DNA of 64,000 nucleotides. It comes from Ruditapes philippinarum (taxonomy: Eukaryota). Positions 5,154 to 58,460 of this stretch are shown here, one piece after another. The stretch spans positions 62,001-126,000 of the forward strand of contig NW_026858506.1 of assembly GCF_026571515.1 (NCBI RefSeq), written 5' to 3'. Below the pieces are notes generated by a model. It was not told the origin of the DNA, ran no database searches, and saw nothing but the letters and a program-made list of their open reading frames with translations. Positions within the stretch are counted from its first letter, which is position 1. Every line of letters starts with the position of its first letter. Both the position numbers and the translations under genes were made by a program.

Positions 5154-5327
5154 CGAGACTGTGTCTTTTCTGCGACTTTTTGTGTTTGAGAAAGAATTCG
5201 TATTTTCGGTTGTTGGCCTGCATCTCTTTAATGATGCGTTCAATCTCCAGCTCGGTCAAGTTGTCTTCGGTCCTTTTCCCAAAGTCTCTGATCTGATTCA
5301 ACTTGATTGCGTAAGGCAACTCGTGGC
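5154..5327 (-). CDS. ARHGAP20: Coding exon, 174 nt: (G)HELPYAIKLNQIRDFGKRTEDNLTELEIERIIKEMQANNRKYEFFLKHKKSQKRHSL (end of RA domain)
   Basis: Acceptor tgttttctttcAG, donor G|GTGAGT, phase 1 to 1. GHELPYAIK continues the EAPYPL motif across a 10-kb intron. Confidence 0.95.
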
Positions 5328-8300
5328 CTGAAAGAAAACAATAAATAGCTAATTGAAATTTGATACACTTTCATCATAGCTGGCAATTCTTGCGAATACT
5401 AATTTATATTTCGTAATGTCTTACAACCAATTTTGTTCAAATTAAAACAGGAGAAATTCATTTTCAGACATACAAGATAAAACTGTCATTATAATTAAAT
5501 CTATTAAGGGCATTTCTGTAATTTATTTCCTAATTTGCACATGTTTTAAGTTTATTTCTGGTAATTTAATTAGTGTCAAACAAACATTATTAATCGCAAT
5601 TAGAGGGCAAAAGTCAATGAAGAGAGAATGAAAATTTTAATTGTTACTATTATTTAAACTACTATTATTAAATCATATAGGCATCTTGCTATTTCCATTA
5701 ATATTAGATATATTATTAGATTTTTGCTTTTTTTAGCATCTTTTTATCTTGATGTACTTTAAATAGGATTATAATTTTTTTACACTATCTTTTAATCTTT
5801 TATATAAACGCTACATTTTTGTTTTTCATAATCTCAAGTTATGCAGTATTTTAAGCTGCGTTAAAATAGGATCAGTTTTTGACATCTGAGTACAAGTTGA
5901 ACAAATAAGAACTCAAAGTGTTACTCTTCAACAACAACTAAAACAATAAGATAAAGAATTTTAAGACATAGTCATAAAATTGTTAAGGGGCCCATAATCA
6001 TCAAAACATGGAGTTAGTCATCACCTGACTGCTATTTTGACTAATACTATATTTTATCTGATAACATGGATAACAAAAGCTACGTGGAATTTACATGTCT
6101 AGCGCATAGGTTTTAAACAATTAGTTCCTAAATAGGGGTAGAAAAACACAAATTTACAATTTCACAGTTCAATGAATTTTAAAAGTAATTGTAAAAATTT
6201 TGAGAATAGATAAACAATACATCATAATTGCCCGCTAACGTTTTCAATTTTTAGTCCAAATTTCATATTCTGTCAAGCAAACTACAAACTTTTTAATAAA
6301 CTTGCAACATTTTTCAATTTAAAATCAAAGTTTACAAAAGCATTTAATAATTATATTTTTTGTAATGACCCATTGATATATATACCTAATATTTTCTTTT
6401 TATATAATGTCCTTATTAAACAGTATTTAAGTGTTGTTTTTTTACTTTTGCAATTGAATTAAAGTTAATTCAATTAAAATTATTATATAATAATCATCAA
6501 ATTCAATTGAAAACTAATTTAATAAATTACAAATTCAATTTACCTTGTGTTGTTTGTACATCCAACAGCATTTTTGTATATTTTTATATCAATTTGAAAT
6601 AACACACAAAAATTTAATCCAGATTTATAAATATGTCAATATTTTGTGAAATTAAATAATATTATATTTAATCACAAATTTATCCATTTTAAAACAAACT
6701 GTTTCAATTTTTACTATTAAATACATCCACATAGGACATTAACAACTTATTGATGTAAACACGTTTACTAACTGGAGTAGTTCACAGGTAAGTAGTAAAA
6801 TTCTCATTGTGTCACATGACAGCTTGACAGGCTTATCTCGACCAATCAGAGCACGTTACTTTAAATAAACCACTAATGATCAGAGCTGTCCAATTTAAAG
6901 AGATGAAGTATACAGATATACTTGTGTTAAAAGAGTTTTGCATTTAAATTGAATGAAACTAAGTTTATCAAAACGTGTGACCTTTTCAAAAATTAAAGTA
7001 AAATTGTTTTTTTATAACAAAATATATATATTTAAAGATGTACACTGAAGATTTTTATCAAAACATATATCGGGGCAATTTTCTTGTAAAGGGTGGGGAT
7101 AAAGATATTTGTACTTTTGAAAAGAATTAAAACTGCTTAAGATCTTGTCAAAAGAATTGCGCAAACATAATTATAGATAGTAGGTGGGTTAAGAAACAAT
7201 ATTTTTGCAATTTGAAAGGAAATATTTTAAAACAACCTTGAAAATATTTTTCCCTCAAGAAAAAAAAGAAAAGAAAAGATTGATATATATTATCTTTATC
7301 TCATACCACACAGATAAAATACTTTGGCTATGACTAATCATTGTGCACTCCATTACAATTATTACGTAAAGTTTCCATTTATTTTAATGATCCAAATTAT
7401 TAAATTTCAATGCCATATTTTGAAAAGAAGCGTTTAATTTTTTTATAAAGGATAAGTCTATAAATAAGACGGCATGCACCAGATATTGCCTTATAAGGTA
7501 ATTACTTGTCAAATTTCATAAAGCAAAATTAAATATTCTAATCTTAAAAATATTAATAACATAATGTAATTAAATCTGTCTCGAAATATTTTATATATCT
7601 ATCAATAAGCATTCACTAGGAATGAGGAGAAGTTGGACCAGGTTAAGTGGAGAAAAGAAAATTTAGAAAGTTTACAGAAATCCGGGATTATTCCATTGTG
7701 TATATGCAATCCTCTTGACATACTTCATCTTAATCAAAACAAGCATCTAACCTTGAATAACTTCATGATTATGTAACAAATATTTAAAAACTTCGACATT
7801 TTTTTTCATTAAGAATAATCGTGGGAAAAAGAACAATTGAGACTTTTCCTGCTATTCATATAATGAATGTATAAGAACCTCTCGACATTTTGGGACCAAT
7901 TTGTAAGTTTATTGTAAATTTGCTGGAGACAATAAAAGTATATCTACTACAATACAAGACGGACACCACCTTCTTGAAGTACTTCTGACACCAAACTGTG
8001 TTCTATTTTTAGAAGACTCTTTATTATGCCATTAAAAATACTATCCAGCTAGCTTTGATGTTTTCTCTTTATTTTGCAATTTTTCAATTTTACAACAGTA
8101 GCATTGCCTGTATTTTTCGAGGGTCTAAAAATTCAGTAAAAAGAAATAAAATAAAATAGCAAACTAACACAAGAATTCTGCAAATTTTTTAAAGACCAAA
8201 GCTAAAAAATGGCTGACCCTTTGTGAACCTTTCAACAATTTACCATATTTAAAGTCTTCAAGTAGTTTTATTACTAGGGGCATTGCAGTTTAACAGAGAC

Positions 8301-11267
8301 AACAACTTATTTATTGACTTTTAATATTTTACAGAAAAATCGTCACTACCATGCAAAAACGTACAGTCAAGTGATTTTGAATAAAATATCTAAATAAATA
8401 AACAAGTTATCAACCTATGTTACGTCAATATCACATATTCATAATCAGATTACTGACTACGATTTCATCAGGTGTCATGTCTTTCTCCTGTATAAACAGC
8501 AAAAATTGTTTTGTCCCCTTAAAAGTTTAAAGACCTACTTAAAACATGCTATGAGAACACAAGTGTGCATTGTCCAAATGGGTTAAATCTTACTGACCAG
8601 TGGCCAAAACAACATTTTTGAGGTACTAATCCATAAGTTGTTTTTCAATAGGAGAGGTCCGTAATCTTCTTAAAGTTTTCATTCACCATAGGCTGTTTTT
8701 TTCTGTGACCTAATTCTATTCAGATATTACAATGAATTAGGACTCTCTTCTCTTGTTTTTATTTCTGGCATTCCCCACACCTTGATCTTGATTGTATAAT
8801 GATTTTGACCTTTAAACATGAAAACACAATGTTTTTGAAGGAAGTCAGACCAACAACTTAATTATTTACATTATAACTGAAGCCACTTAAAGTTTCTGGT
8901 TGGGCTTACCATTACTTTGCAATACATTTTTCCCTTAAAGAGTTTCTTTGGAGCCTTGCAAAGGTATCTTTGCATATTTCATAAAAGTGGTTTTTGCTGT
9001 CATTTTGATGCTTGGCACAATGGTTCTTTCTGAAGCCAATTGCAACATACTAGAGGGACCAATAATATCACTGTGATACTCTCATAAAACTGACCTTTAT
9101 TTAAAATGTAAACTCAAATCTGTTGACCTCTTCACCCTTTTTCACACAGGCAGGAAAATATTTTAAGAACCCATTCATAAACCTAATTTATGAGGTAAGG
9201 ATATTTTAGCTCCAGTTTTGTTGTCCCAATAAGGAGTGTATTCTCAAGTATATCATTATGTAAATTATGGGAAAATATGAAGTTTGGTTGTAAAGGTGAT
9301 TAGAATACAAGAGGACCACGTCGCCGGACACTAGAAAACCTTAGTGAAACAAATATTCCAGCAGGAATAAAATCATGTGTGACATACATTATAAACATGA
9401 TTTATCAATTATCATGAAAATTCATGATTTACTTTGACGTCATCGCAAATAATAATTGCTTTTTTCTTTTCAGTTAAAGGTAAAACGTGTCAGATAAATT
9501 TGTCACTGTAAGATGGGTTTGATAGGGTCACAAATCAATTGGATTTCCAGGTATAAAATAAGGATGTCACAATATCCGTTGGATTTTCAACCATAACTTA
9601 AGGATGAAGACCTACCAGTATCTTAAATAATAATATGACCTATTCTGTCTTGGTGCATCATAAAACCAAACAAACAGACCTAACTTATAAGCAATTTTTC
9701 ACTTTTTTGTAAGCAATATCTCATTTTTCAGTAGCTTAATTCATAAGCAAAATTTCACTATCTTATAAGAAGTATCTTACGAAATGTTAATAAAACAATA
9801 TCATGCCTACTAAGGCATTTTCTTACATACTATTGCGAGAACTTTAACAATGGATTTGGGATTATAAATATCTTTAGATTAAAATCATGCAAATATTAGA
9901 TTATCCATAATCCTTTAATCCTTCAAAAAAGAATATATCACAACAAAAACAAAGCCTGTGAAATTCTCGCAGAAATTTTCAAATAATTTTTTTTTTTCAC
10001 AACATTAAATGGATTTGTTACTATAAGGACAAAAGTCCAAATTAAGAGACTTAAACCTCAATATGGCAGAATATTCAGGAAAGGACAATATCCAATATAC
10101 TGATCTATATGACTATTGTCCATTTATTGAGCAATTTTTAATCTTAACCCCATTGGAAGCAAAAGAGATTATCCTTTGCCACCAGGATAAAGCCTGAGGC
10201 AAGCCTGCATGTTCATGGAGTCAGACCAGGCTTTATATTGACGTCTGACCAACTCTGCAAACTTTCATCTTGATATCCCTAAAACTGATAATGGACTGTT
10301 GAAAAAATGGAAGCTGGACAAGTCCATTTAATAAAGAATTTTGACAGATTAAGGGTATCAAAAAGAGACTGCTTGGTAAAGAGATGTTTGAGTTCAAACA
10401 GTGTGACACAGGGGTCAACAAGTACATTCTGTGACTGTCTGCAGGCTGTTGCTATCAAGTGTAAACAAATATCGTAAATATTGCGGTCCGTCTGATCGGT
10501 AACTATCAGAAGCTCACATGGTCATTGTTATATTGTCCATTATTTACTCAATGATATTACGTATTGTATCACAGTATCCAATACTTGATTATTATATTAT
10601 GTCTGACAAGAAAGTGTAAATAAATCGCGATATGAAAGGGAGAATATTGTAAAATAATCAATAAATAAATTTTTATCTTTATTTTTCAATAGGTTATGTC
10701 ATATTTGTTTGATCTATACTACATTGTTTATAATAATACAACATTTTGATGCGCACTTTATTATATTGAACATTCACACGATTACAGAAAGATAGATACA
10801 GTAATGTAGTATGATGGATTCAATTTTTTCTAACATTCAAAAGATTTGATATTTATTTTCTATTTTTCAATAATAAAAAAGCTTTTTTTGTGTTTGAATG
10901 TAAGAGAATTCTTTGTCAACAATTATCAAATGAAAATTTAAGATCCCCGCACCCTCTCCATAAAAAAAAATAAATAGAAATTAGAAGACATCTACGTTAA
11001 AGCTTAGATAAAACTGCCCATTGGTTGCTAGGAAATGTCATATATTGCAATCAGTAAATCAGCTTAAAATATTTTGGGCTAATCGGTCCAACAAAAAGCG
11101 GGGTTCCGCTCTGATAAGATGAAGGCCAAAGAAGTGTTAAAGATGCTATAATGGTCTTTTCAACTTTAATCATTATTACTGATAGGGCTTACAATACCAT
11201 CGTTTATTTAAATACTTAATTCCCACTGTCAGAATTTCACAGTTTTGAAAATGGTCATCTCTAAGAA

Positions 11268-11457
11268 AAGCATGCCAGTAATCAAGCTTCTTTTTGATTG
11301 TGATTTTTAAATTGAAATAAGCCATGCCAGTGATCAAGCTTTCCTTTGATACTGACTTTGTAATTAATATTAAGCAAGCCAGTAATCAAGCTTTCTTTTG
11401 ATACTGATTTTGTAATTAATATTAAGCAAGCCAGTAATCAAGCCTCCTTATGATACC
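11268..11457. repeat. Minisatellite, 52-bp unit, about 3.6 copies
   Basis: gccagt(a/g)atcaagc at 11274, 11326, 11378 and 11430. Confidence 0.9.
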
Positions 11458-12977
11458 TTTTTTTTTTAAAAGAAATAATCTGATTGGTGATTGGTTGTTG
11501 TTTATTTTAAATAAATTTCAAAATTTTAATGTTTACAAAGTAATTTTTTGTAAATTACATTTTGTACTGAAATGCCTTTGAAAAGCGAAGTTGAAAAAAA
11601 AAATCTAAATTCAATAAAATTAAAATAACTTATCATTTAACACCTAAAAAATGTTGTTATCTTCATTCATAAAGATAACAAAAAAAAAAGAAGAAGAATT
11701 CTATAAGGATTTAGCTGCATTCACATTTTGTGCCCGGGCCTTCAAATATTTTGAATAGTTGTACTGAAATTGGGACAATAAGTTACTGTTCGAGCATAAA
11801 TTCATTTTTGAAATACATTTTTTTCCATTAACAATATCATGAAAACAAACTTCAAGGATGTGTATCAAAGAAAAAATGTAAACAACTTGCCAATCCTCAT
11901 TGTTGTTCATTTTTTCACCTGATTTTCACAATTTATCACAAAAATTTTATTCAAAGCATGGTCAGGCATGATGGATTTTTCTATCTTCATTTATCAAAAA
12001 GTAAGTAAATTGTGTAACAAAAAAAAAATTATTCAGTAATTAAGTTTCTTGCCCATGAAGTTCAAGGTTAAAATCAGTACATTTCCCAACTGTAAACAAA
12101 TATGATTCTTAAAAAGAAGACATATGAGGGGATATCCAAAAGTATGCAGGCTTTTCTTAGAGTTTTAAAATTGCAATGGTTATAGTTACAAATGGAAATA
12201 CACCAGCAGTTTTTTAAATGAATTTTGTTTTGAAAGTCATCTCAGAGCCATATTCTGTCATAGCATCTGTTTTTTGTTTGTTTTTGGTTGGATTCAGTTC
12301 AAACATCAATTTCAACCAATAGAAACTTACTTTACACATCCCTAAAAACTCTAAATCAAGTGATACCTTTTTTTGATTTGCATATTATGTAACATTTACA
12401 CTGCAAAACATTTTTTTGTTATTCCATAAAACCTTGATACTATGACCTCTGTAAAGTTCATTGCATATTTAAACTTTACAACTTTTACATAAAAAATGCT
12501 GAAAATGTCACTAAATGGATAAATCATCATAAAATGCTAGCATTTATAGTTTTGCTGATTTTGTTAACTGCACGAGCGTGGTGATATTTTTTCAACAAAG
12601 CAAACTGCGCAAATAAACAATCGGAAATAATTCTGCACCTATTATCTACAATAAACTTTCACCCCGTAGATAATGGGCGAGAAATCGGTACCAGTTTTTA
12701 CCGTGCACAAATTTTCCCAGGCTTAATTTCGGTGATAACATCGTAAATTGTTACGTTATTAATAATATTATTAACAAAAGGTAAACAAGTTTAAAACATG
12801 ATAAGAGGGCCATAGTTATTATATAGGAAAGGTCATACATTTTGTAATTATCTTATTTTCTGACCTTTTTTACATCAAATTTATAAATAGCCCAAAAAAG
12901 TGTTATCTTAAATCAAATTACATGAATACATTTTTCTATTACAAATAACTTTTAATTTTGCGTGTAAATTTACATAT

Positions 12978-14891
12978 AACAAGATATGTTTGTAAAACAT
13001 GTATGCCCCCTATCTGCAGCCAATTAGTCATGTGATAAGGTTATTATGCATGACTTCTGACCCAGTGATCAAACAATTAATAAGGGTTATCAAGTATCTA
13101 CTGGTCATGACCTTAACCTTTGACCCCTTGACCCATAACTCAATAGGGGTCATCTGCTGGTCACGACCAATCATCATACAAAGTTTGAAGTTCCTAGGCC
13201 TAAGCGTTTTTAGTTAATTGATCGGAAACCGTTTTTACCTACAAGGTCAATGTGACCTTGACCTTTGACCCCTTGACCCAAAATAAATAGGTCATCTGCT
13301 GGTCATGACCAATCACCATACCAAGTTTGAAGTTCCTAGGCCTAAGGGTTCTTTAGTTATTGATCGGAAACCGTTTTAACATACAAGGTCAATGTGACCT
13401 TGACCTTTGACAACAAAATCAATAGGGGTCATCTGCTGGTCATGACCAATCACCATGCCAAGTTTGAAGTTCCTAGGCCGAAGCGTTCTTTAGTTATTGA
13501 TCAGAAACCGTTTTTACTTACAATGTCAATGTGACCTTGACCTTTGACCCCTTGATCCCAAAATCAATAGGGGTAATCTGCTGGTCATGACAAATCACCA
13601 TACCAAGTTTGAAGTTCCTAGGCCTAAGCGTTCTTAAGTTTTTGATCAGAAACCGTTTTTACTTACAAGGTCAATGTGACCTTGACCTTTGACCCCTTGA
13701 CCCAAAACTCAATAGGGGTCATCTGCTGGTCACAACCAATCATCATACAAAGTTTGAAGTTCCTAGGCCTAAGCGTTTTTAGTTAATTGATCGGAAACCA
13801 TTTTTAACTACAAGGTCAATGTGACCTTGACCTTTGACCCCTTGACCCCAAAATCAATAGGTCATCTGCTGGTCATGACCAATCACCATACCAAGTTTGA
13901 AGTTCCTAAGCCTAAGGGTTCTTAAGTTATTGATTGTAAAGCATTTTTACCTACAAGGTCAATGTAACCTTGCCCTTTGACCCCTTAACCCCAATATCAA
14001 TAGGGGTCATCTGCTGGTCATGACCAATCACCATACCAAGTTTGAAGTTCCTAGGCCTAAGGGTTCTTTAGTTATTGATCGGAAACCGTTTTAACCTAAG
14101 AGGTCAATGTGACCTTGACCTTTGACCCCTTGACCCCAAAATCAATAGGGGTCATCTACTGATCATGACCAATCACCATATCAAGTTTGAAGTTCCTAGG
14201 CCTAAGGGTTCTTTCGTTATTGATCGGAAACCGTTTTTACCTACAAGGTCAATGTGACCTTGACCTTTGACCCCTTAACCCAAAATCAATAGGGGTCATC
14301 TGCTGGTCATAACCAATCACCATACCAAGTTTGAAGTTCCTAGGCCTAAGGGTTCTTTTGTTATTGGTCAGAAACCGTTTTTACCCAAGAGGTCAATGTG
14401 ACCTTGACCTTTGACCCCTTGACCCCAAAATCAATAGGGGTCATCTACTGATCATGACCAATCACCATACCAAGTTTGAAGTTCCTAGGCCTTAAGGTTC
14501 TTTAGTTATTGATCGGAAACCGTTTTTGCTTACAAGGTCAATGTGACCTTGACCTTTGACCCCTTGACCCCAAAATCAATAGGGGTCATCTACTGATCAT
14601 GACCAATCACCATACCAAGTTTGAAGTTCCTAGGCCTTAAGGTTCTTTAGTTATTGATCGGAAACCCTTTTGGCTTACAAGGTCAATGTGACCTTGACCT
14701 TTGACCCCTTGACCCCAAAATCAATAGGGGTCATCTACTGGTCATGACCAATCACCATACCAAGTTTGAAGTTCCTAGGCCTAAGGGTTCTTTAGTTATC
14801 ACTCGGAAACCATTTGGTCTACGGACCGACGGACCGACGGACCGACAAGTGCAAAGCAATATACCCCCTTTTCTTCGAAATGGGGGCATAA
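12978..14891 (-). mobile_element. Non-autonomous Helentron/DINE-1-type (HINE, pearl-like) element, copy 1, with about 12 tandem units of ~144 bp
   Basis: Read on the minus strand: subTIR TTATGCCCCC with a nearby inverted repeat (ggggg), a (GTCG/GTCC)n microsatellite, the central tandem array, the complementary subTIR GGGGGCATA, a short stem-loop (atgttttacaaacat), then cttgtt into an A/T site. No TSD. This is the DINE-1/HINE layout. Confidence 0.88.
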
Positions 14892-15386
14892 TTAATCAAT
14901 ATTAAGCAATTGGTTCATCTCCGACATTGTTTTCATTCAGAAATAAAGTTTGGGTGCATACATTCTGGATATTTCCTTACAAATGATAGAAGAGTTTTGT
15001 CCAGTCTGAAATATGGACAAAGCCCCGAGAAATCTAACCTGGTAATAAACTTTTTCCGATTCATGCCTATGAGAAATCCATGCACCAACATAATTAAGTT
15101 CATATGGGGAAATCAGTATCAGAAAAGATGATTTTGGCTTACCTCGAGTGTTACAAACTTAAAGCAACACCAGTGGTCAAAACCACCTCACCTGCTGAAG
15201 CAAAGAGATACACAGATTCCAGAAATTTAAACCCATTAAGTCGCCTCTAACGATAAAGCAGGGATAAACGTTGACTGCAATTCTGATGCCTCAACCTTTT
15301 GAGGTAACCCTCTCAAATGTCACCTAACAAGATGTTAGAATAAAAAAGATCTCTGTCAGTTTTTCTATGTAACAAAATAAACTTAC

Positions 15387-15456
15387 CACAAAGTGGGTAT
15401 GGAGCTTCATCAGGTCCTAGCCGGACCCACAACTGATAGTCTTTCGCCTCTGACTC
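15387..15456 (-). CDS. ARHGAP20: Coding exon, 70 nt: ESEAKDYQLWVRLGPDEAPYPLC(G) (RA domain)
   Basis: Acceptor tctatattttcAG, donor G|GTAAGT, phase 0 to 1. Contains the DYQLWV...EAPYPL motif. Confidence 0.95.
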
Positions 15457-25591: not shown

Positions 25592-25763
25592 GAAATAATA
25601 TATCCAAATCAGTGATTTTATCGCTTGATAACATCACTGTTTGTCGTTCGGATGCGCATATTATATCACTCGGGCTAAGCCCTCGTGATATAATTCCTCG
25701 CATCCGAACTCCAAACAGTGATGTTATTGAGCGATAGAATCACTGTTTGGGATATATTATTTC
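25592..25763. repeat. 172-nt imperfect palindrome (long hairpin), the end of a Crypton-like repeat
   Basis: gaaataatatatccaaatcagtgatt...cactcgggc-taa-gccctcgtg...aatcactgtttgggatatattatttc; the arms pair along their whole length with small internal bulges. The hairpin is directly visible, the Crypton label is tentative. Confidence 0.75.
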
Positions 25764-26345
25764 TTAAACAACTGTTTTATATAGAGCTTTATTGTCTGAA
25801 GGGTAGGAAGACACTTCACCCCCAGACGGCAGACACTTCACCCGTCAAGACACTTCACCCCTCATCCAATTTTTTTATTTATTTAAATTATTTTTAATAT
25901 TATTTGATTAATAACTTTTTAATTAAAGGACTAAATAATATTGTATGTAAAATAAATAATACTGTATTGTATGAAAGATAAAAATATACTGGTTTCCTAG
26001 CAGTTTCCGTCCCCTAGCAGTTTTCTGGTCGTTTATCATTTTCGTCCAGTAGTCTATTTTTACCAGTAAGGCATCCACATTACTTCATCAATCAGAGAGA
26101 CATTTGATTTCTATGCTAAACAGTACAATGATTTATTTGTTTTGAAGTTTTTCCTTTTATTTAAAGTTACATTTGTAAGAGAACTTGCGACTTTCAAAAA
26201 TAAGCAACACCTGGGGAATTCTAGTTTGAATATCCATGCGCAAAAACTTAACCCCATTTTAGGTAAATCAATACTTCAGAAAATATTTTTGCAGACGACA
26301 CGGAAAAGGTTGGGAAGTTCTGTTTGTCTGATAAAACCATCTTAA

Positions 26346-26823
26346 CCTTTTACCCCATGAGCATATTGCGAAAAATGGCCGTTTTCATTGAAAAGCCTCC
26401 TGTAACAAGTTCAAACTGCTATGAAACTATGAAAAATGCTTCAATACTGATGAAACTTGGCACAAATGTTGACTACACCATAGCCTCTGTAACAGCATGC
26501 TCAATCGTAAATTTCCTGTTACCATGGCAAGGGGGGGACGTCTCAAATTGCCAAAAATCACTATTTTGCATTGTTTTTTTCCATCAGCCCTCCTCCAAAC
26601 CCCCCAAACAGAAGGGGACATATCCCCCTTCTGGCAACCCCCTGATGTAACATTTGGATGGGGGACCGCGCCGAAAAAGTGGTCACTTTTTTTAACAACA
26701 TTTCTCAAACGAAAACCAGTGCTTGGGGCCTAAATAGAGCATTTTTTCAATGTTTGAGGCCTTAAAAAGGGAGGGGGGGGGGGGGCGAAAAGCCGTCGAA
26801 ACACGCTTATATGAGGGAAAAGG
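26346..26823 (+). mobile_element. piggyBac-like MITE, copy 1 (internally deleted)
   Basis: TTAA on both sides (26342-26345, 26824-26827) and imperfect TIRs CCTTTTACCCCAT / ATGAGGGAAAAGG. Reverse-complement homologue of 57524-58164. Strand is arbitrary. Confidence 0.8.
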
Positions 26824-26839
26824 TTAACATTGCTTTATG

Positions 26840-27568
26840 GTATAAATACATTTAAGGAAAATCAATGATCCCTGGGGTGGGGCCAATTTTAACCCAAGGG
26901 CCCTTATTTGAACAAAAATGGTAGACACCTATTAGAAGATGTTGATGCTAAATATCTTAGCTCTAGCTCTAAAGGTTTTTTAAAAAGAAGATTTTTTAAG
27001 TTTTTGCTATAAACATAAAGGGAAAAAAACGACCCCCTGGGGTGGGGCCAATTTTGACCCCAGGGCTTTTATTTGAACAAACTTTGTAGACACCCACTAG
27101 AAGATGTTTCATGCTTAATAGCTAAGCTCTAGCTATTTGGGTTTTTTAAAAGTAGATTTTTTAAGTTTTTACTATATACAAATAAGGAAAATCAATGACA
27201 CCCCCCCCCCCCCCGGGCGGGGCCAATTTTGACCCCAGGGCATTTATTTGAACAAACTTGGTAGACACTGACTAGATGATGTTTCATGCCAAATATTTAA
27301 GCTCTAGCTCTTACGGTTTTCTAAAAGAAGATATTTTAAGTTTTTTCTTTTTGTTGCCATGGTTACCAGAGTTCTGCTTGGAATTTAATTCTTTGAATAA
27401 TTTTTAAAGTTGACTACCAAAGGAACATTTCTGTGAAGTGTGGATGAAATTGGCTTAGTGGTTTATGAGGAGATGTCATTTAAAGTTAAAGTTTACGGAC
27501 GGATGACGGACGGACGAAAAGCGATCACAAAAGCACACCATGGCACTTTGTGACAGGTGAGCTAAAAA
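26840..27568 (-). mobile_element. Second HINE-type family, one end truncated, with about 3 units of ~165-175 bp resembling the bivalve Cg170/BIV160-type satellite
   Basis: Three repeats of ggggccaattttgaccccaggg..ttatttgaacaaa..ggtagacacc..agctctagct..gaagattttttaagtttt, then a ggac microsatellite and a terminal aaaagcacacca...ggtgagctaaaaa inverted pair. The family resemblance is from memory. Confidence 0.65.
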
Positions 27569-27700
27569 TTTTCCATTAACTGTGATATGAGCCTTTTTTG
27601 TAGGGCAAAAGCAACAATATATCCATTTTATTATACACGTCTTATAAATGAAATATTGAGAAATATTGATGAAATAAATTGCGTATTTTCATTTTCCGTA

Positions 27701-28107
27701 TTTTCACTGTAAAAATTTATTTTTCACTGCAGTGAAACATATTTTCCGTATTTTCACTGGTGTCTTGCCGGACTACTTTCTTTTAAATTCTGCCAGTACA
27801 CAAATTTTAAGGGAAAGTCCTTCATTTTTATCGCAAAAAAAGAGTAAAATGTATATAATATTAATAAACAGAAAATTCAAGTTTTTTCTATAAATACATG
27901 ATTTTTTCACTGTAAAAATTTATTTTTCACTGCAGTGAAACATATTTTCCGTATTTTCACTGGTGTCTTGCCGGACTACTTTCTTTTAAATTCTGCCAGT
28001 ACACAAATTTTAAGGGAAAGTCCTTCATTTTTATCGCAAAAAAAGAGTAAAATGTATATAATATTAATAAACAGAAAATTCAAGTTTTTTCTATAAATAC
28101 ATGATTT
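27701..28107. repeat. Direct tandem duplication of 203 bp
   Basis: 27701-27903 is repeated at 27904-28106 with a constant offset of 203 at every point checked; no differences seen. Confidence 0.9.
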
Positions 28108-28226
28108 ATTTCATCTTGTGGCATGAAAATTACCATATTTCACTTGTGGCTACCGCCACTGATGAAATATTTATTTTCATACCACTCGATGAAAATAAAT
28201 CATGTATCTATAGAAAAAACTTGAAT
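28078..28226. repeat. ~150-nt imperfect palindrome (long hairpin) of a second Crypton-like family
   Basis: attcaagttttttctataaatacatgattta...gtggc-tacc-gccac...taaatcatgtatctatagaaaaaacttgaat. Confidence 0.75.
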
Positions 28227-29974: not shown

Positions 29975-31440
29975 CTGGTTCCTGAGATGGGGACGGTCTG
30001 TTACATCACAAAAAAATCAATTATTTGACCTTGAAAGTCAAGGTCATTTATGACTTAAGATCAATGTAAGTTTCATCATCTTGAAGGTCTACAATGTATC
30101 CACAAGGACAATTCATTCATGAATGATTAAGCTTTAGCCACTTTGGTACATTTTTGTGATATTTTCTAAGTTAAAAAAGACAAATAGTCAGAGTTATGAA
30201 ACTTGACACACAGATAAAGATGCATTGTAATTTTAATAATTTCCATATACTCATTGCAAAGTTTAATCGCCATTCCAAGCAAAAACAATTAACAAATTCA
30301 GTAATTGCATCTTTAAGGCCAAGGTCATTTAAAAGTCAAGGTCAAAGATAATTTGATCTTCATGAATGTCTTGTCCTAAAGGTTATTCAGTCTAATTATG
30401 AGACAATTCATTAATACAAAATTTGTAGTCAGTTACAGAAAAAAAGAGAGCAAAATTCAGTTATTTGACCTTAAAGCTCAAGGTCGTTTGTGACTCAAGG
30501 TCAGGGTAAGTCTGGTCATCTTAAAAGAACAATCCAGAGAATGTTATTCCATATATGAAATTCATTCATTAACACTAAAGTAGTAGCCACTTTGGTCGTT
30601 TTTTTTATGTGGAATATTCCTAAGCTAATAACAAGGGCCATCTGACAGTGATAACATGTGTCGCCTCATGATTGCCAGTCACATGTTGCAGCTACCAAGA
30701 GACCCAAAAATCATTAACTGGGCAAAACACTTTTTTATTCAAGGGCAATAACTCAGCTGAAAATCATTCAAGTGAAAAGTTTGTGTATTATCAATTTATG
30801 CACAAGTACTTGACCTACCTATCAATCCTGTAAAGTTTCATTGAAATTGCAGTAATTGTATAAGAGGAGTAGTCCTGACAAACTTTATTAACATCCTTTT
30901 CATTCAAGGGCCATAACATGGCCAAAAATCATTCAAGCGGGAAACTCGAGTAATTTGTGCTTGTGCAAGTACTTGACCTATCAATCAATCCTGAAAGTTT
31001 CTTGGAAATTGCATTAGTGGTATAATAGGAGTAGTCCCAGGGCTTGAGCTAGGTCAAATTTTTAGGGAGAAGTGACTTCTCCCTCCAGCTGATTTAGGGA
31101 GTAGTGAGGAGACTTTAGGGAGAAGTTGGGAGACATATAAGGCGTCATCGTCTGGAGAATTATAAGCTTAGAAACTTTACAAACCAGAAAAGAAATTAGA
31201 AACACTTCTCAAATACTGTCCGGACAAACTTTAAAAAAATATATAATTAAAGGGCCATAAATCCAACAAAATTTATTGAACCATAAAAGCTGATGATATG
31301 CACACAAGACTTGGACTGCGTTCATTGAATGCCGCCTTTCCTTGTCGATCTTGTTTATCATATTTTTTGGTACTGATCATTCCTGTAAATTTAGAAAGAA
31401 ATTGCACCAGTAGTTTTTGAGAAGTAGTCCAGCATGGGTA
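29975..31440. repeat. Decayed HINE/satellite-like remnants, interrupted by a hAT-like end (CAGGGCTT...) at about 31038-31215
   Basis: Recurrent ttatttgacctt..aaggtc units (about 30020, 30315, 30460) and aaggg(c/a)ataac..aaaatcattcaa..caagtacttgaccta..aggagtagtcc units (about 30740, 30905, 31250). Confidence 0.5.
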
Positions 31441-34400: not shown

Positions 34401-35353
34401 GTAAACACTTACCCTACTTTCACTTTGTAATTTCGGAAAATTTCGAAGCGAGTTAGGTAAACAAGAACGACATGCGAATGAAACTGATATTGTTTAAAAA
34501 ACGTCAGTCTCAAACCATGTCACTAGTGTTAAACCCACAATCGTTTTCCTCTGCCTTCGTCCTATGATGATTGTCCGAATAATTCCATGAAATACAACAA
34601 ATATCCATGAAAGGTCTGAATCGTCGCGCATTTCCTGCTCTAGGTCAGCCATCTTGTTTTTGTTACTATTTTTAGCACAGTCAGTGCTCTCCAGTCGGTA
34701 ATTACAAATAGAAAAACTGCTATTAAACGAAATTTTCGCCTTAGGATAAAATTTAAGTTAAGGAATTTCTTGCCTAAGGAATTCACTTAAGGGATTTTTG
34801 ACCTCTAAGTTAAGGGAAAATTTTACCTTAGGGAGTTTTCTTGAAGATAAGGAAATGTTTCCCTTAAAACTTAAGATCCTTTATGAATACGGCCCCAGAT
34901 CAACACCTTAATAGGATTTCTAAACTGTACCATTCAAGGCCGTAACTTCATGAATAATAATGAATTCATCATCCAAATATATATGCTTTTTTCAAAATTG
35001 TACCAAGGGCAATAACTCTATATTGTATACTCTAATTATCAATACAACACTTAAATATATAAGCTATTTCAAAATTGTATCAATGGCAATAATTCTACAA
35101 ATATGCAGTTAGGCACATAAATGCTAGTTAAGGAGCCCATACCTTTATATAATAATTAGTTCAACATTTCATGCTATTCCTTAACCGGACCATCACTTTC
35201 AATATAAACACGTAAATACCTTTAATGCTGTTTAAAAACTTGATCAAGGGCAATAACTCTGCCATCAGTTCAAAACTCAAAGGGGTTAAACGGAGTGTTA
35301 CATACAGAAGTGCAAAATGGGATGGCAGTCCGAGGAAATATAAGAATACATAC

Positions 35354-35527
35354 TTTTGTTTAGCTACAAGCAGCAGATCACTAAAGAGGAACAGGTAACG
35401 GTCCTGCGTCTGCATCCCACGGGAAAACTCCACAATTCCCTCCATAAGGTACTGTCGGTTGAAATTGTTGTTAGTCCGTGAGGGACGGAAAAATTCCATG
35501 TCCTTTTTCCCCATGCTTGGTGTTGGT
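35354..35527 (-). CDS. ARHGAP20: Coding exon, 174 nt, start of PH domain: PTPSMGKKDMEFFRPSRTNNNFNRQYLMEGIVEFSRGMQTQDRYLFLFSDLLLVAKQ(K)
   Basis: Acceptor cttattatttcAG, donor AA|GTATGT, phase 2 to 2. Contains the classic PH signature RYLFLFSDLLLVAK and overlaps ORF 35161..35514. Confidence 0.95.
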
Positions 35528-35620: not shown

Positions 35621-37553
35621 AACAAGATATGTTTGTAAAACATGTATGCCCCCTATCAGCAGCCAATTATTCATGTGATAAGGTAATTATGCATGACTTC
35701 TGACCCAGTGATCAAACAATTAATAAGGGTTATCAAGTATCTACTGGTCATGACCTTGACCTTTGACCCCTTGACCCAAAACTCAATAGGGGTCATCTGC
35801 TGGTCAAGACCAATCATCATACAAAGTTTGAAGTTCCTAGGCCTAAGCGTTTTTAGTTAATTGATCAGAAACCGTTTTTACTTACAAGGTCAATGTGACC
35901 TTGACCTTTGACCCCTTGACCCCAAAATCAATAGGGGTCATTTGCTGGTCATGACTAATCACCATGCCAAGTTTGAAGTTCCTAAGCCTAAGGGTTCTTT
36001 TATTATTGATCCGAAACCGTTTTAACATACAAGGTCAATGTGACCTTGACCTTTGACCCCAAAATCAATAGGGGTCATCTGCTGATCATGACCAATCACT
36101 ATGCCAAGTTTGAAGTTCCTAGGCCGAAGCGTTCTTTAGTTATTGATCAGAAACTGTTTTTACTTACAAGGTCAATGTGACCTTGACCTTTGACCCTTGA
36201 TCCCAAAATCGAAAGGGGAAATCTGCTGGTCATGAAAAATCACCATACCAAGTTTGAAGTTCCTAGGCCTAAGCGTTCTTAAGTTATTGATCAGAAACCG
36301 TTTTTACTTAAAAGGTCGATGTGACCTTGACCTTTGACCCCTTGACCCAAAACTCAATAGGGGTCATCTGCTGGTCACCACCAATCATCATACAAAGTTT
36401 GAAGTTCCTAGGCCTAAGCGTTTTTAGTTAATTGATCGGAAACCGTTTTTACCTACAAGGTCAATGTTACATGACCTTTGACCCCTTGACCCTAAAAACA
36501 ATAGGTCATCTGCTGGTCATGACCAATCACCATACCAAGTTTGAAGTTCCTAGGCCTTAGGGTTCTTTAGTTATTGATCGGAAACCGTTTTTGCCTACAA
36601 GGTCAATGTGACCTTGACCTTTGACCCCTTGACCCCAAAATCAATAGGGGTCATCTACTTGTCATGACCAATCACCATACCAAGTTTGAAGTTCCTAGGC
36701 CTAAGGGTTCTTTAGTTATTGATCGGAAACTGCTTTTACCTAAAAGGTCAATGTGACCTTGACCTTTGACCCCTTGACCCCAAAATCAATAGGGGTCATC
36801 TACCGATCATGACCAATCACCATATCAAGTTTGAAGTCCCTAGGCTAAGGGTTCTTTCGTTATTGATCGGAAACCGTTTTTACCTACAAGGTCAATGTGA
36901 CCTTGACCTTTGACCCCTTAACCCCAAAATCAATAGGGGTCATCTACTGATAATGACCAATCACCATATCAAGTTTGAAGTCCCTAGGCCTAAGGGTTCT
37001 TTCGTTATTGATCGGAAACTGTTTTTACCTACAAGGTCAATGTGACCTTGATCTTTGACCAACTTAACCCCAAAATCAATAGGGGTCATCTGCTGGTCAT
37101 AACCAATCACCATACCAAGTTTGAAGTTCCTAGGCCTAAGGGTTCTTTTGTTATTGATCGGAAACCGTTTTTACCCAAGAGGTCAATGTGACCTTGACCT
37201 TTGACCCCAAAATCAATAGGGGTCATCTACTGATCATGACCAATCACCATACCAAGTTTGAAGTTCCTAGGCCTTAAGGTTCTTTACTTATTGATCGGAA
37301 ACCGTTTTTTGCTTACAAGGTCAATGTGACCTTGACCTTTGACCCCTTGACCCCAAAATCAATAGGGGTCATCTACTTGTCATGACCAATCACCATACCA
37401 AGTTTGAAGTTCCTAGGCCTAAGGGTTCTTTAGTTATCACTCGGAAACCATTTGGTCTACGGACCGAAGGACCGACGGACCGACAGACCGACGGACCGAC
37501 GGACCGACAAGTGCAAAGCAATATACCCCCTTTTCTTCGAAATGGGGGCATAA
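35621..37553 (-). mobile_element. HINE element, copy 2 (same family and orientation), about 12 units of ~144 bp
   Basis: Termini are near-identical to copy 1 (aacaagatatgtttgtaaaacatgtatgccccc ... cttcgaaatgggggcataa). The GGAC/CGAC microsatellite at about 37460-37508 is longer. Confidence 0.88.
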
Positions 37554-56500: not shown

Positions 56501-57340
56501 CATTAATATGCGTACACCATTAAAACATCAATGGCAGAATGATGCTGCATAAATATGCCCCAATATTTATGCAGTTACGTTAACAGATCATTATGATTTA
56601 CTACTAGGCGGTGGATGTTTTCCGCCCAGGTAAATAACACAACTTTATATTTTCTATCACTGCTGTGCATGTAATAATATTAATTAAAAAGTCGTTAAAC
56701 GTGACACTCAAAATATAGTTTGCATCTCTTCACACAGTTTTTGTAACCCATTCTATCCTTTGCAAACTTAATGAATGAAATTGTATGCTGTTTAGGCCTA
56801 TTTTCATTTTTTGATGATCACATTAAGTAAATGTTTGAGCAAACTTACATTAAAAGCAGTACTCAAATGCAAGTTTACTGACAAAACTTTAAAACGCAAG
56901 CATTGGTTTGGTCTGAATTATAATTTTTTTTGGATGTCTTTTATTAGTAGATTACATTGACCATATCTGTAATTTAATCACCTTTACCTGCTGAATTTCT
57001 TAAATGGACTTGTCCAGCATCTTGTTTCGGAAATTAAATTTTAGACATATCAAACGACAATTTGAAGTTGGTCAGCCAACAGTATAGAGCCTGGTCAGAC
57101 TGCACAGATGCAAAGGCTTATCAGCAGGTTATGGGTGAAAGCAAAACATTTAAACTGCAACAATCTTAAACTTGACTATACATTTTATTTTATGACATCC
57201 AACTAATACATATTGTAATACGGTCAAACCATATCTGCGCCCTAAATCTTCCAATTTAGACAAAGGACATTGTCACTTCATCTACAAGTTGTTTGATTGA
57301 CACAAGAATTTATAATCAGTCATCAAGCTTATCAACTCAC

Positions 57341-57454
57341 CTGAAGGTCAAGGTCACGAAGCTGAAGGTCATCGTGAGGAAATTTGTCCTGGACACGTTC
57401 CATACGTTTCTGATTGTCCATGTTGCCCAATTCATCCTCCCTCTCCTTGACCAT
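57341..57454 (-). CDS. ARHGAP20: Probable N-terminal coding exon, 114 nt: MVKEREDELGNMDNQKRMERVQDKFPHDDLQLRDLDLQ
   Basis: Acceptor ttttatttctatatttAG|ATG and strong donor CAG|GTGAGT. The frame is open and ends in phase 0, matching the next exon. I recognise no homology, so support is splice signals and phase only. Confidence 0.65.
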
Positions 57455-57523
57455 CTAAATATAGAAATAAAATTCTTATTAAGGTCAAAGGTTAATGAAG
57501 CTTCAAGGTCAATATTGACTTAA

Positions 57524-58164
57524 CCCTTTACCTCATATATACGCGAAACAACGCACTTTCGACCCCCCCCCTTTTCTAGGCCTGAAATAGTGAAAAAATG
57601 TCCTATTTGAGCCCCAAACACATGTTTTCGTTTGAAAAAGGTTGCTAAAAAAAGTGAGCACTTTATTGGCACCGCCCCCCATCAGAAAGATACATCAGGG
57701 GGTTGCCAGAAGGGGGATGTGCCCCCTTCTGTTTGGGGGGTTTGATGGGGGGGCGGAGTCCCCCTCACCGCCAAGAAAATTTTGGACTTGTGAGAGGCTA
57801 AAAATGACCCCAGGTCGATCATAAGGTAACGTGTAACAAACGCTGAAAAGCCTTTGACTCTATCTCAATCCCTTGAGAAGTTGCAGCACTTTGAAATAAA
57901 TTTTGATGGAAAAAATCGAGGCAAAATAGTGATTTTTGGCAATTTTGAGATGTCCCCTCGTTGCCATGGTAACAGGAAATTTAAGACTGAGCATGTCGTT
58001 ACAAAGGCAATGGTCAAGTCAACATTTGTGCCAAGTTTGATAATGGTCAAGTCAACATTTGTGCCAAGTTTGATTAGTATTGGTTTCATAGCAGTTTGAA
58101 CTTGTAACAGGAGGCTTTTCAGTGAAAACGGCCATTTTTCACAATATGCTCATGGGGGAAAGGG
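57524..58164 (-). mobile_element. piggyBac-like MITE, copy 2 (inverted relative to copy 1)
   Basis: TTAA TSD (57520-57523, 58165-58168) and TIRs CCCTTTACCTCAT / ATGGGGGAAAGGG. Internal 33-bp tandem duplication at 58009-58074. The shared pseudo-peptide ILxKLGTNVD.TIA.VT.CS..NFLLPWQ appears in the ORF track for both copies. Confidence 0.82.
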
Positions 58165-58460
58165 TTAACCATACTGGGTAACTTATGCTTTGAAATTCAC
58201 TGACTGCTCAGCAAAATTAACATCCTAAAATAACCACATTGTCAAAACAATAGAAGAAAAAGACTTGACATCAAATGCTAGTGACACAACGGGAAATTTT
58301 CAGAAAAAAATCATGACCTATATAAAACCAAAGTTAATAATAACTACTTGATTGTACAAAATGTACAGGAAAAGCAAATCTAACAAGATGATGGAAATCA
58401 TATCTCATATAGAATCTTACCATCTCAAGTAAGTTAATTAAAAATTACATACACAATATA

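Follow-up and report, generated by a model that had tools for sequence, protein, structure and literature searches.

Non-autonomous Helentron derivatives of the Cg_HINE/DINE-1 class, described in Crassostrea gigas, carry subterminal inverted repeats (subTIRs), a further inverted repeat (IR), a GTCY-type microsatellite, a 3′ palindrome and a central tandem array with units of 140–180 bp, and they insert into T-rich targets, also in introns, without target duplication (PMC7492417, PMC4067079). The central repeats have been treated as captured or intrinsic filler (PMC7492417, PMC4067079), and in the sections of the oyster study used here no nuclear-receptor motif is described (PMC7492417). Rolling-circle elements that supply most sites of one factor in dense clusters are known from Caenorhabditis, where Helitrons hold 61% of the HSEs; binding, Pol II occupancy and gene induction were shown, and the authors proposed that the sites first served the transposon (PMC6927752). 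Transposon-borne estrogen response elements (EREs) usable by ER occur in human Alu and MIR copies (PMC2853111). At ALT telomeres, tandem A/GGGTCA repeats bound by COUP-TFII and TR4 form an orphan-receptor platform tied to DNA transactions, a telomeric case from human cancer cells with no transposon, which serves as an analogy only (PMC6785246). Snail ER binds the consensus ERE ligand-free (PMC3778743), and mollusc ER LBDs are constitutive (PMC3886901); the snail study noted that it was unknown where, and to what extent, EREs occur in mollusc genomes, which left the meaning of ER–ERE binding unclear (PMC3778743).

We analysed 64,000 nucleotides of the Ruditapes philippinarum genome (contig NW_026858506.1, positions 62,001 to 126,000; hereafter the window), in which a periodic array of perfect ERE palindromes had been assigned to a HINE in a preliminary description. 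The layout and ends bear out this identity (Table 1): the element is a HINE, a non-autonomous Helentron. On the minus strand it reads, in order, subterminal repeat and IR, GTCG/GTCC microsatellite, array, second subterminal repeat, palindrome and CTTGTT, with subterminal inverted repeats at both ends, an IR at the 5′ end, a palindrome near the 3′ end and a microsatellite in the left module. Its ends are common to 38 and 31 oriented termini elsewhere with unrelated flanks, and AA (plus strand; TT on the minus strand) follows each of the 31 termini at the right side of the window. For one of the 11 full copies (most had no known empty counterpart), which was inserted inside another repeat, close empty paralogous sites (95% and 93%) aligned gap-free, so insertion at TT occurred without a target-site duplication. 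The element is non-coding, interspersed and multicopy, its longest stop-free frame being at most 73 aa. The clam element and Cg_HINE were compared by description rather than by consensus sequence (PMC7492417).

Table 1. Positions of the element, its second copy and neighbouring host-gene parts in the window
Feature	Position	Strand	Basis
Whole HINE element, copy E1, family A	12978..14890	- (canonical orientation)	Termini recur at other loci; E2 93.4% identical
Left end: subterminal inverted repeat 14882-14890 and nearby IR 14860-14868 (one mismatch)	14860..14890	-	Sequence; architecture as in PMC7492417 (sections used)
GTCG/GTCC-type microsatellite, left module	14821..14846	-	
Tandem core, 145-bp unit x 11.9, 90% matches	13108..14815	-	
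First of 11 IR3 palindromes (9 perfect, 2 one-mismatch); 8-bp arms, 3-nt loop	13244..13258	unstranded	
First complete train GGGTCA-A-AGGTCA-AGGTCA (DR1+DR0) after an ERE; one half-site shared	13253..13271	-	
Right end: subterminal inverted repeat 13002-13010, short palindrome 12986-13000, CTTGTT terminus	12978..13010	-	
Second full copy E2: 9 perfect and 1 one-mismatch IR3	35621..37552	-	
Exon part of host gene, ARHGAP20 PH domain	35350..35451	-	Pfam PF22286, E 1.7e-10, 41.4 bits (cut-off 27.7)
Host-gene exon preceding the ~10-kb intron (5328-15386) with E1	15387..15456	-	AG/GT ends, phase fit, next exon starts at 5327

Both E1 and E2 are intronic in a minus-strand ARHGAP20-like gene. A Pfam search of four other candidate host-gene exons, including those beside E1, returned nothing significant; the exons flanking E1 presumably encode the RA domain.

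All palindromes described previously were recovered at their positions: nine perfect copies of AGGTCAnnnTGACCT start at 13244, 13386, 13668, 13813, 14101, 14246, 14390, 14535 and 14680, and two with one mismatch at 13523 and 13956. They fit the AGGTCA-nnn-TGACCT consensus of the ERE. In the whole window there are 21 IR3 matches with at most one mismatch, 10 of them in the second array, versus 0.10 expected from shuffles. The minus-strand block GGGTCA-A-AGGTCA-AGGTCA (DR1+DR0) and the TCAAGGTCA within it are likewise present. The array had been described as ~144-bp units over 13240..14720; its periodicity holds, but the period is 145 bp (units 137–146) and the 11.9 copies extend over 13,108–14,815. 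Similarly, the IR3 block named as the content of the unit is there, but the consensus unit contains eight GGTCA/TGACC half-sites in total, comprising the IR3 with 8-bp arms, a repeat train of TGACCT/TGACCC and further hairpins, with one half-site common to IR3 and train. The argument that the spacing is special for being near-nucleosomal was rejected, since 145 bp falls within the 138–181 bp monomer range of oyster HINEs (PMC7492417) and such a period is generic for HINEs.

Genome-wide, perfect AGGTCAnnnTGACCT sites number 21,847 in 1.41 Gb, versus 93 with the pattern reversed and an expectation of 38 from base composition. The family-A spacer, used as a proxy for family membership, is present in 18,146 of them (83%) and the spacer of a sister family B in another 1,730, so that the two families hold 91%. 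By this proxy a rolling-circle element supplies most of the genomic consensus sites in clusters, as the preliminary description had anticipated in proposing that such an element may spread site arrays through the genome. One young rolling-circle family thus likely supplies ~83% of the perfect EREs, compared with the 61% of HSEs in Caenorhabditis (PMC6927752). Unlike the HSE Helitrons, the clam element is a Helentron derivative whose sites are of nuclear-receptor type, with any receptor binding putative. It also differs from the human Alu/MIR case, in which mostly single imperfect sites lie in retroelements and ER is ligand-dependent (PMC2853111), in that its perfect sites are periodic and lie in a DNA element, with an ER that is presumably constitutive. 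The human genome has 2,310 perfect 13-bp ERE cores (PMC2853111); in the clam one transposon family dominates a perfect-ERE landscape with ~20 times the human density despite the stricter motif (taking the standard human genome size).

As spacing controls, 153 IR2 and 237 IR4 sites were counted genome-wide. Reading these low counts as selection for IR3 was rejected, since a single amplified family accounts for the IR3 excess. The clustered IR2/IR4 sites that were inspected were mostly indel-ridden family-A copies. Copies on several contigs (L124, L125, L127, L129) are full of single-base indels, probably from unpolished long-read assembly, which inflates the IR2/IR4 counts. A 22-bp minisatellite of GGTCA...TGACC units, not of HINE type, was found at L123:1100-1500 (G000 C3259).

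Searches with the two element ends gave 1,577 and 1,367 first-look candidate copies, and we infer ~2,000 copies of family A from the depth of two Hi-C-like runs taken as DNA. These runs, X21 and X22, are labelled RNA-Seq, yet have GATC junctions and 65% run-on reads, as in Hi-C, and were of use for copy number, not expression. The best copies are 99% identical, and the median nearest-neighbour distance between family-A units is 2 of 145; the family being young, the site counts reflect amplification. These figures, together with the tracing of nearly all of the excess to two related families, are what would be expected if the module were a neutral passenger, with half-sites held by chance in a founder unit, multiplied by recent amplification and bound by nothing effectively. 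We consider this unlikely, since the train is kept in otherwise dissimilar contexts, its place within the HINE skeleton is fixed, and lineage variants avoid it.

Conservation within family A was measured on 528 of 595 units, a sample biased toward young copies, after one duplicate locus was excluded, as were the final two complete units wherever the query that picked a locus covered them. Variants at a frequency of at least 5% affected 46 of the 145 unit positions versus one of the 15 ERE positions (base-matched P = 0.009), and the ERE 15-mer ranked 13 of 131 in exact retention; the summed rarer variation in the ERE was not lower (P = 0.34). With substitutions only, the Fisher P value was 0.058 for the ERE and 0.007 for ERE plus train, and lineage substitutions fell on two of 28 positions at 64–91 versus 32 of 103 elsewhere (P = 0.007). 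Rare events, counted once per locus, reached 0.70 of expectation in the ERE (Poisson P 0.006–0.009, with counts overdispersed 1.8-fold), 0.46 in the half-site shared with the train and 1.17 in the spacer; the ratio of 0.75 for the ERE-completing half-site, its variable position left out, was not significant (P = 0.13). The half-sites therefore vary somewhat less than the remainder of the unit, mainly the one shared with the train. The expectation that the palindrome would be the more conserved part was borne out weakly, and mainly through that half-site; signs of constraint on the ERE as one unit are modest within family A and weak across families. Slippage or hairpin correction could be an alternative source of the family-A pattern.

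The preliminary description suggested that such arrays may serve as a portable enhancer or a receptor sink; the version weighed here is that the ERE arrays enhance expression through the constitutive mollusc ER, or titrate it, with real effects on host genes. The mollusc ER orthologue it presupposed has a counterpart in the genome, which encodes an ER-type DNA-binding domain (DBD exons examined; L156, first finger, P-box CEGCKA) whose best matches, at E 1e-18 to 4e-16, are AncSR1 and ER structures. DBDs presumed to resemble ERR, RXR, COUP-TF, TR2/4 and FTZ-F1 are present as well. Intronless nuclear-receptor DBDs that lie in long open frames and have CEACK/CEPCK P-boxes form an expanded group (L141–L150), three of its members being clustered on contig C10081.

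With such a receptor, the ligand-free binding of snail ER (PMC3778743) and the constitutive LBDs (PMC3886901), the excess of perfect 15-bp sites over the human 13-bp cores (PMC2853111), the deficit of rare variants in the 15-mer relative to its spacer and the C. elegans precedent (PMC6927752) all speak for ER as the effective partner. We nevertheless find this reading improbable, because the deficit is concentrated in the train-shared half-site within overdispersed counts, the other half and the cruder variation test are not significant, and most of the sister family's spread took place with the ERE broken. In human cells, moreover, only 51 of the 2,310 perfect EREs are among the high-confidence bound loci (PMC2853111). 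The reads point the same way: in two RNA-labelled runs the right end of the element was present at ~15–22% of its genomic share, equally in both directions, and no start or end piles over the element were found in the reads of the RNA-labelled runs. Of the four runs, two resemble Hi-C, and the libraries seem to be unstranded. Loose read ends at the element boundary fit read-through from many loci, and element-initiated transcription was dismissed for want of start piles. The reads speak against a strong internal promoter in those samples; they carry no information on enhancer activity.

Comparison across families separated the two parts of the module. Sister family B, ~72% identical to family A outside the module, has 3,424 copies of the broken form AGGTAA versus 1,730 intact EREs, and the two forms alternate within its arrays. 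At 164 loci of the same genome not chosen for the ERE, 167 train anchors fell into 61 clusters, many of them singletons, of which two had a mostly perfect ERE partner and eight one within one mismatch. When 140 six-base windows were ranked over 14 related clusters, the two train half-sites came 3 and 10 and the ERE-completing half-site 48; spacer identity was 0.43 versus 0.66 outside.

A metagenome scan with the 19-bp train as query, which selects for the train and so tests only its flanks, gave at least 121 loci with at least 124 contexts. Among the matches listed, GGTCA at IR3 spacing was present in two of 123 scorable contexts, both in contig L188, and a further TGACC downstream of the train in 58 of 124, 43 of them at DR2 spacing; 54 of these 58 unselected half-sites match RGGTCA versus a background of ~50%. 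The HINE landmarks (AAGTTT box, microsatellite) lie at fixed offsets from the train among these matches, and a tandem array is visible in three of 121 of the loci listed. L188 carries a HINE unit 77% identical to family A with an IR3 of CTG spacer, adjoined by a second HINE with IR5-like spacing. Since the IR3 is recognisable with different spacers in several relatives (L188, L347, L363, L122), it is probably old in the 145-bp clade and was repeatedly degraded. It is the TGACCT direct-repeat train (DR0/DR1/DR2), not the ERE, that persists across families. The idea of the ERE as the functional core is not supported by this comparison, in which its completing half-site is labile and the train is the conserved part.

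The genome yielded 94 Rep hits, and the upstream DNA of 50 was inspected. Most Rep loci examined carry a Rep motif 2 of Helentron type, and the Rep domain of L312 was confirmed. The left-end microsatellite lies upstream of Rep in sense at 19 of the 50 loci and in antisense at one (the loci are not independent, several being of one family). Upstream of the ORF, three copies of a single Helentron have a 166-bp array in common; the 166-bp family, represented in the window by an array of 166–175 bp units, also makes up the left arm of several autonomous Helentrons. A complete ~10-kb Helentron (L333-334) has a homologous 145-bp array upstream of RepHel with an intact train (DR0) and no ERE. Another (L366+L387), with exact family-B ends and likewise a homologous 145-bp array upstream of RepHel, has four tandem half-sites, an intact train and a broken ERE in its unit; the assembly interrupts its ORF. 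The tandem arrays thus belong to the left arm of autonomous Helentrons; the oyster HINEs, in contrast, were unlinked to autonomous partners in the sections of that study used here (PMC7492417).

No autonomous partner with exact family-A ends was found among the 50 of 94 Rep hits inspected. In L363 a family-A-like left end and 1.5 units (88.6%) lie upstream of a Rep frame that is broken, but its contig stops without a matching right end. Of the 50 Rep loci, only three had arrays with a clear train (one antisense), and the AGGTCA train is absent from many abundant HINE units of the same genome; not all Helentrons therefore need it. Also noted were several Helentrons having open frames of ~2,000–2,640 aa and internal N-terminal coding repeats of 63–177 bp (L327–L346; G000 C14714, C4213, C3781, C11722 and others), which are possibly still active.

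From these patterns we tentatively favour, at somewhat less than an even chance, the reading that the train is a conserved cis-module of the left arm to which a direct-repeat receptor binds, to the element's benefit, with the ERE as a labile extension. The array core would likely descend from an autonomous Helentron's left arm, and the AGGTCA direct repeats in it would recruit a host nuclear receptor of the COUP-TF, TR2/4, RXR, HNF4, ERR or FTZ-F1 class. The element might profit from such binding through transcription of the transposase in autonomous copies or through the opening of non-autonomous ones. Because related elements keep the train far better than the palindrome, it is the train that likely recruits a receptor; the palindrome is probably a by-product, which the constitutive mollusc ER could bind in family A only as a side effect.

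The match to receptor sites might instead be coincidental, the motif being read by the Helentron's own RepHel or acting as a single-strand structure (8-bp hairpin plus slipped repeats) in rolling-circle copying. This would explain why non-coding copies keep the block within a lineage, and the IR3 hairpin does fold in single-stranded DNA (unit z = −2.5). Conserved arms with a freely varying loop are also expected from hairpin correction, and other boxes of the unit are about equally conserved, a control 15-mer from one of them having 18,438 sites genome-wide versus 18,146 for the ERE. However, the part lost across families is precisely the hairpin partner, the spacing varies from DR0 to DR2 while the sixth base follows RGGTCA, and many HINE families are mobile without the train, so that we regard this explanation as unlikely, though worth keeping in view. 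Rather unlikely, too, is a more far-reaching version of the receptor-module reading, in which an ancient direct-repeat module in the left arm of the Helentron clade lets orphan receptors switch on or license transposition, and the ~18,000 EREs of a young HINE redirect or titrate a ligand-independent ER and define most of its binding landscape.

Our open-access literature search found no description of AGGTCA arrays in Helentrons or HINEs; the motif is not described in the sections used of PMC8268682 and PMC8149454, the latter of which masked repeats from ATAC peaks. ERE scans or ER ChIP in Ruditapes philippinarum must account for HINE-borne sites, and the arrays offer a direct test of constitutive ER action. 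The train in autonomous left arms suggests a function for the central repeats of HINEs.

Other repeats were noted in the window. An HINE-like element at 26,342–27,570 has an array of 166–175 bp units at 26,870–27,345, and another HINE-like element lies at 57,520–58,168, where a stretch near 57.5–58.2 kb is repeated in inverted orientation. Decayed repeats at 30,012–30,603 and 57,340–57,530 contain everted and IR4-like AGGTCA half-sites, and self-inverted MITE-like stretches with a 203-bp duplication of 99% identity lie at 25,592–25,763 and 27,701–28,226.
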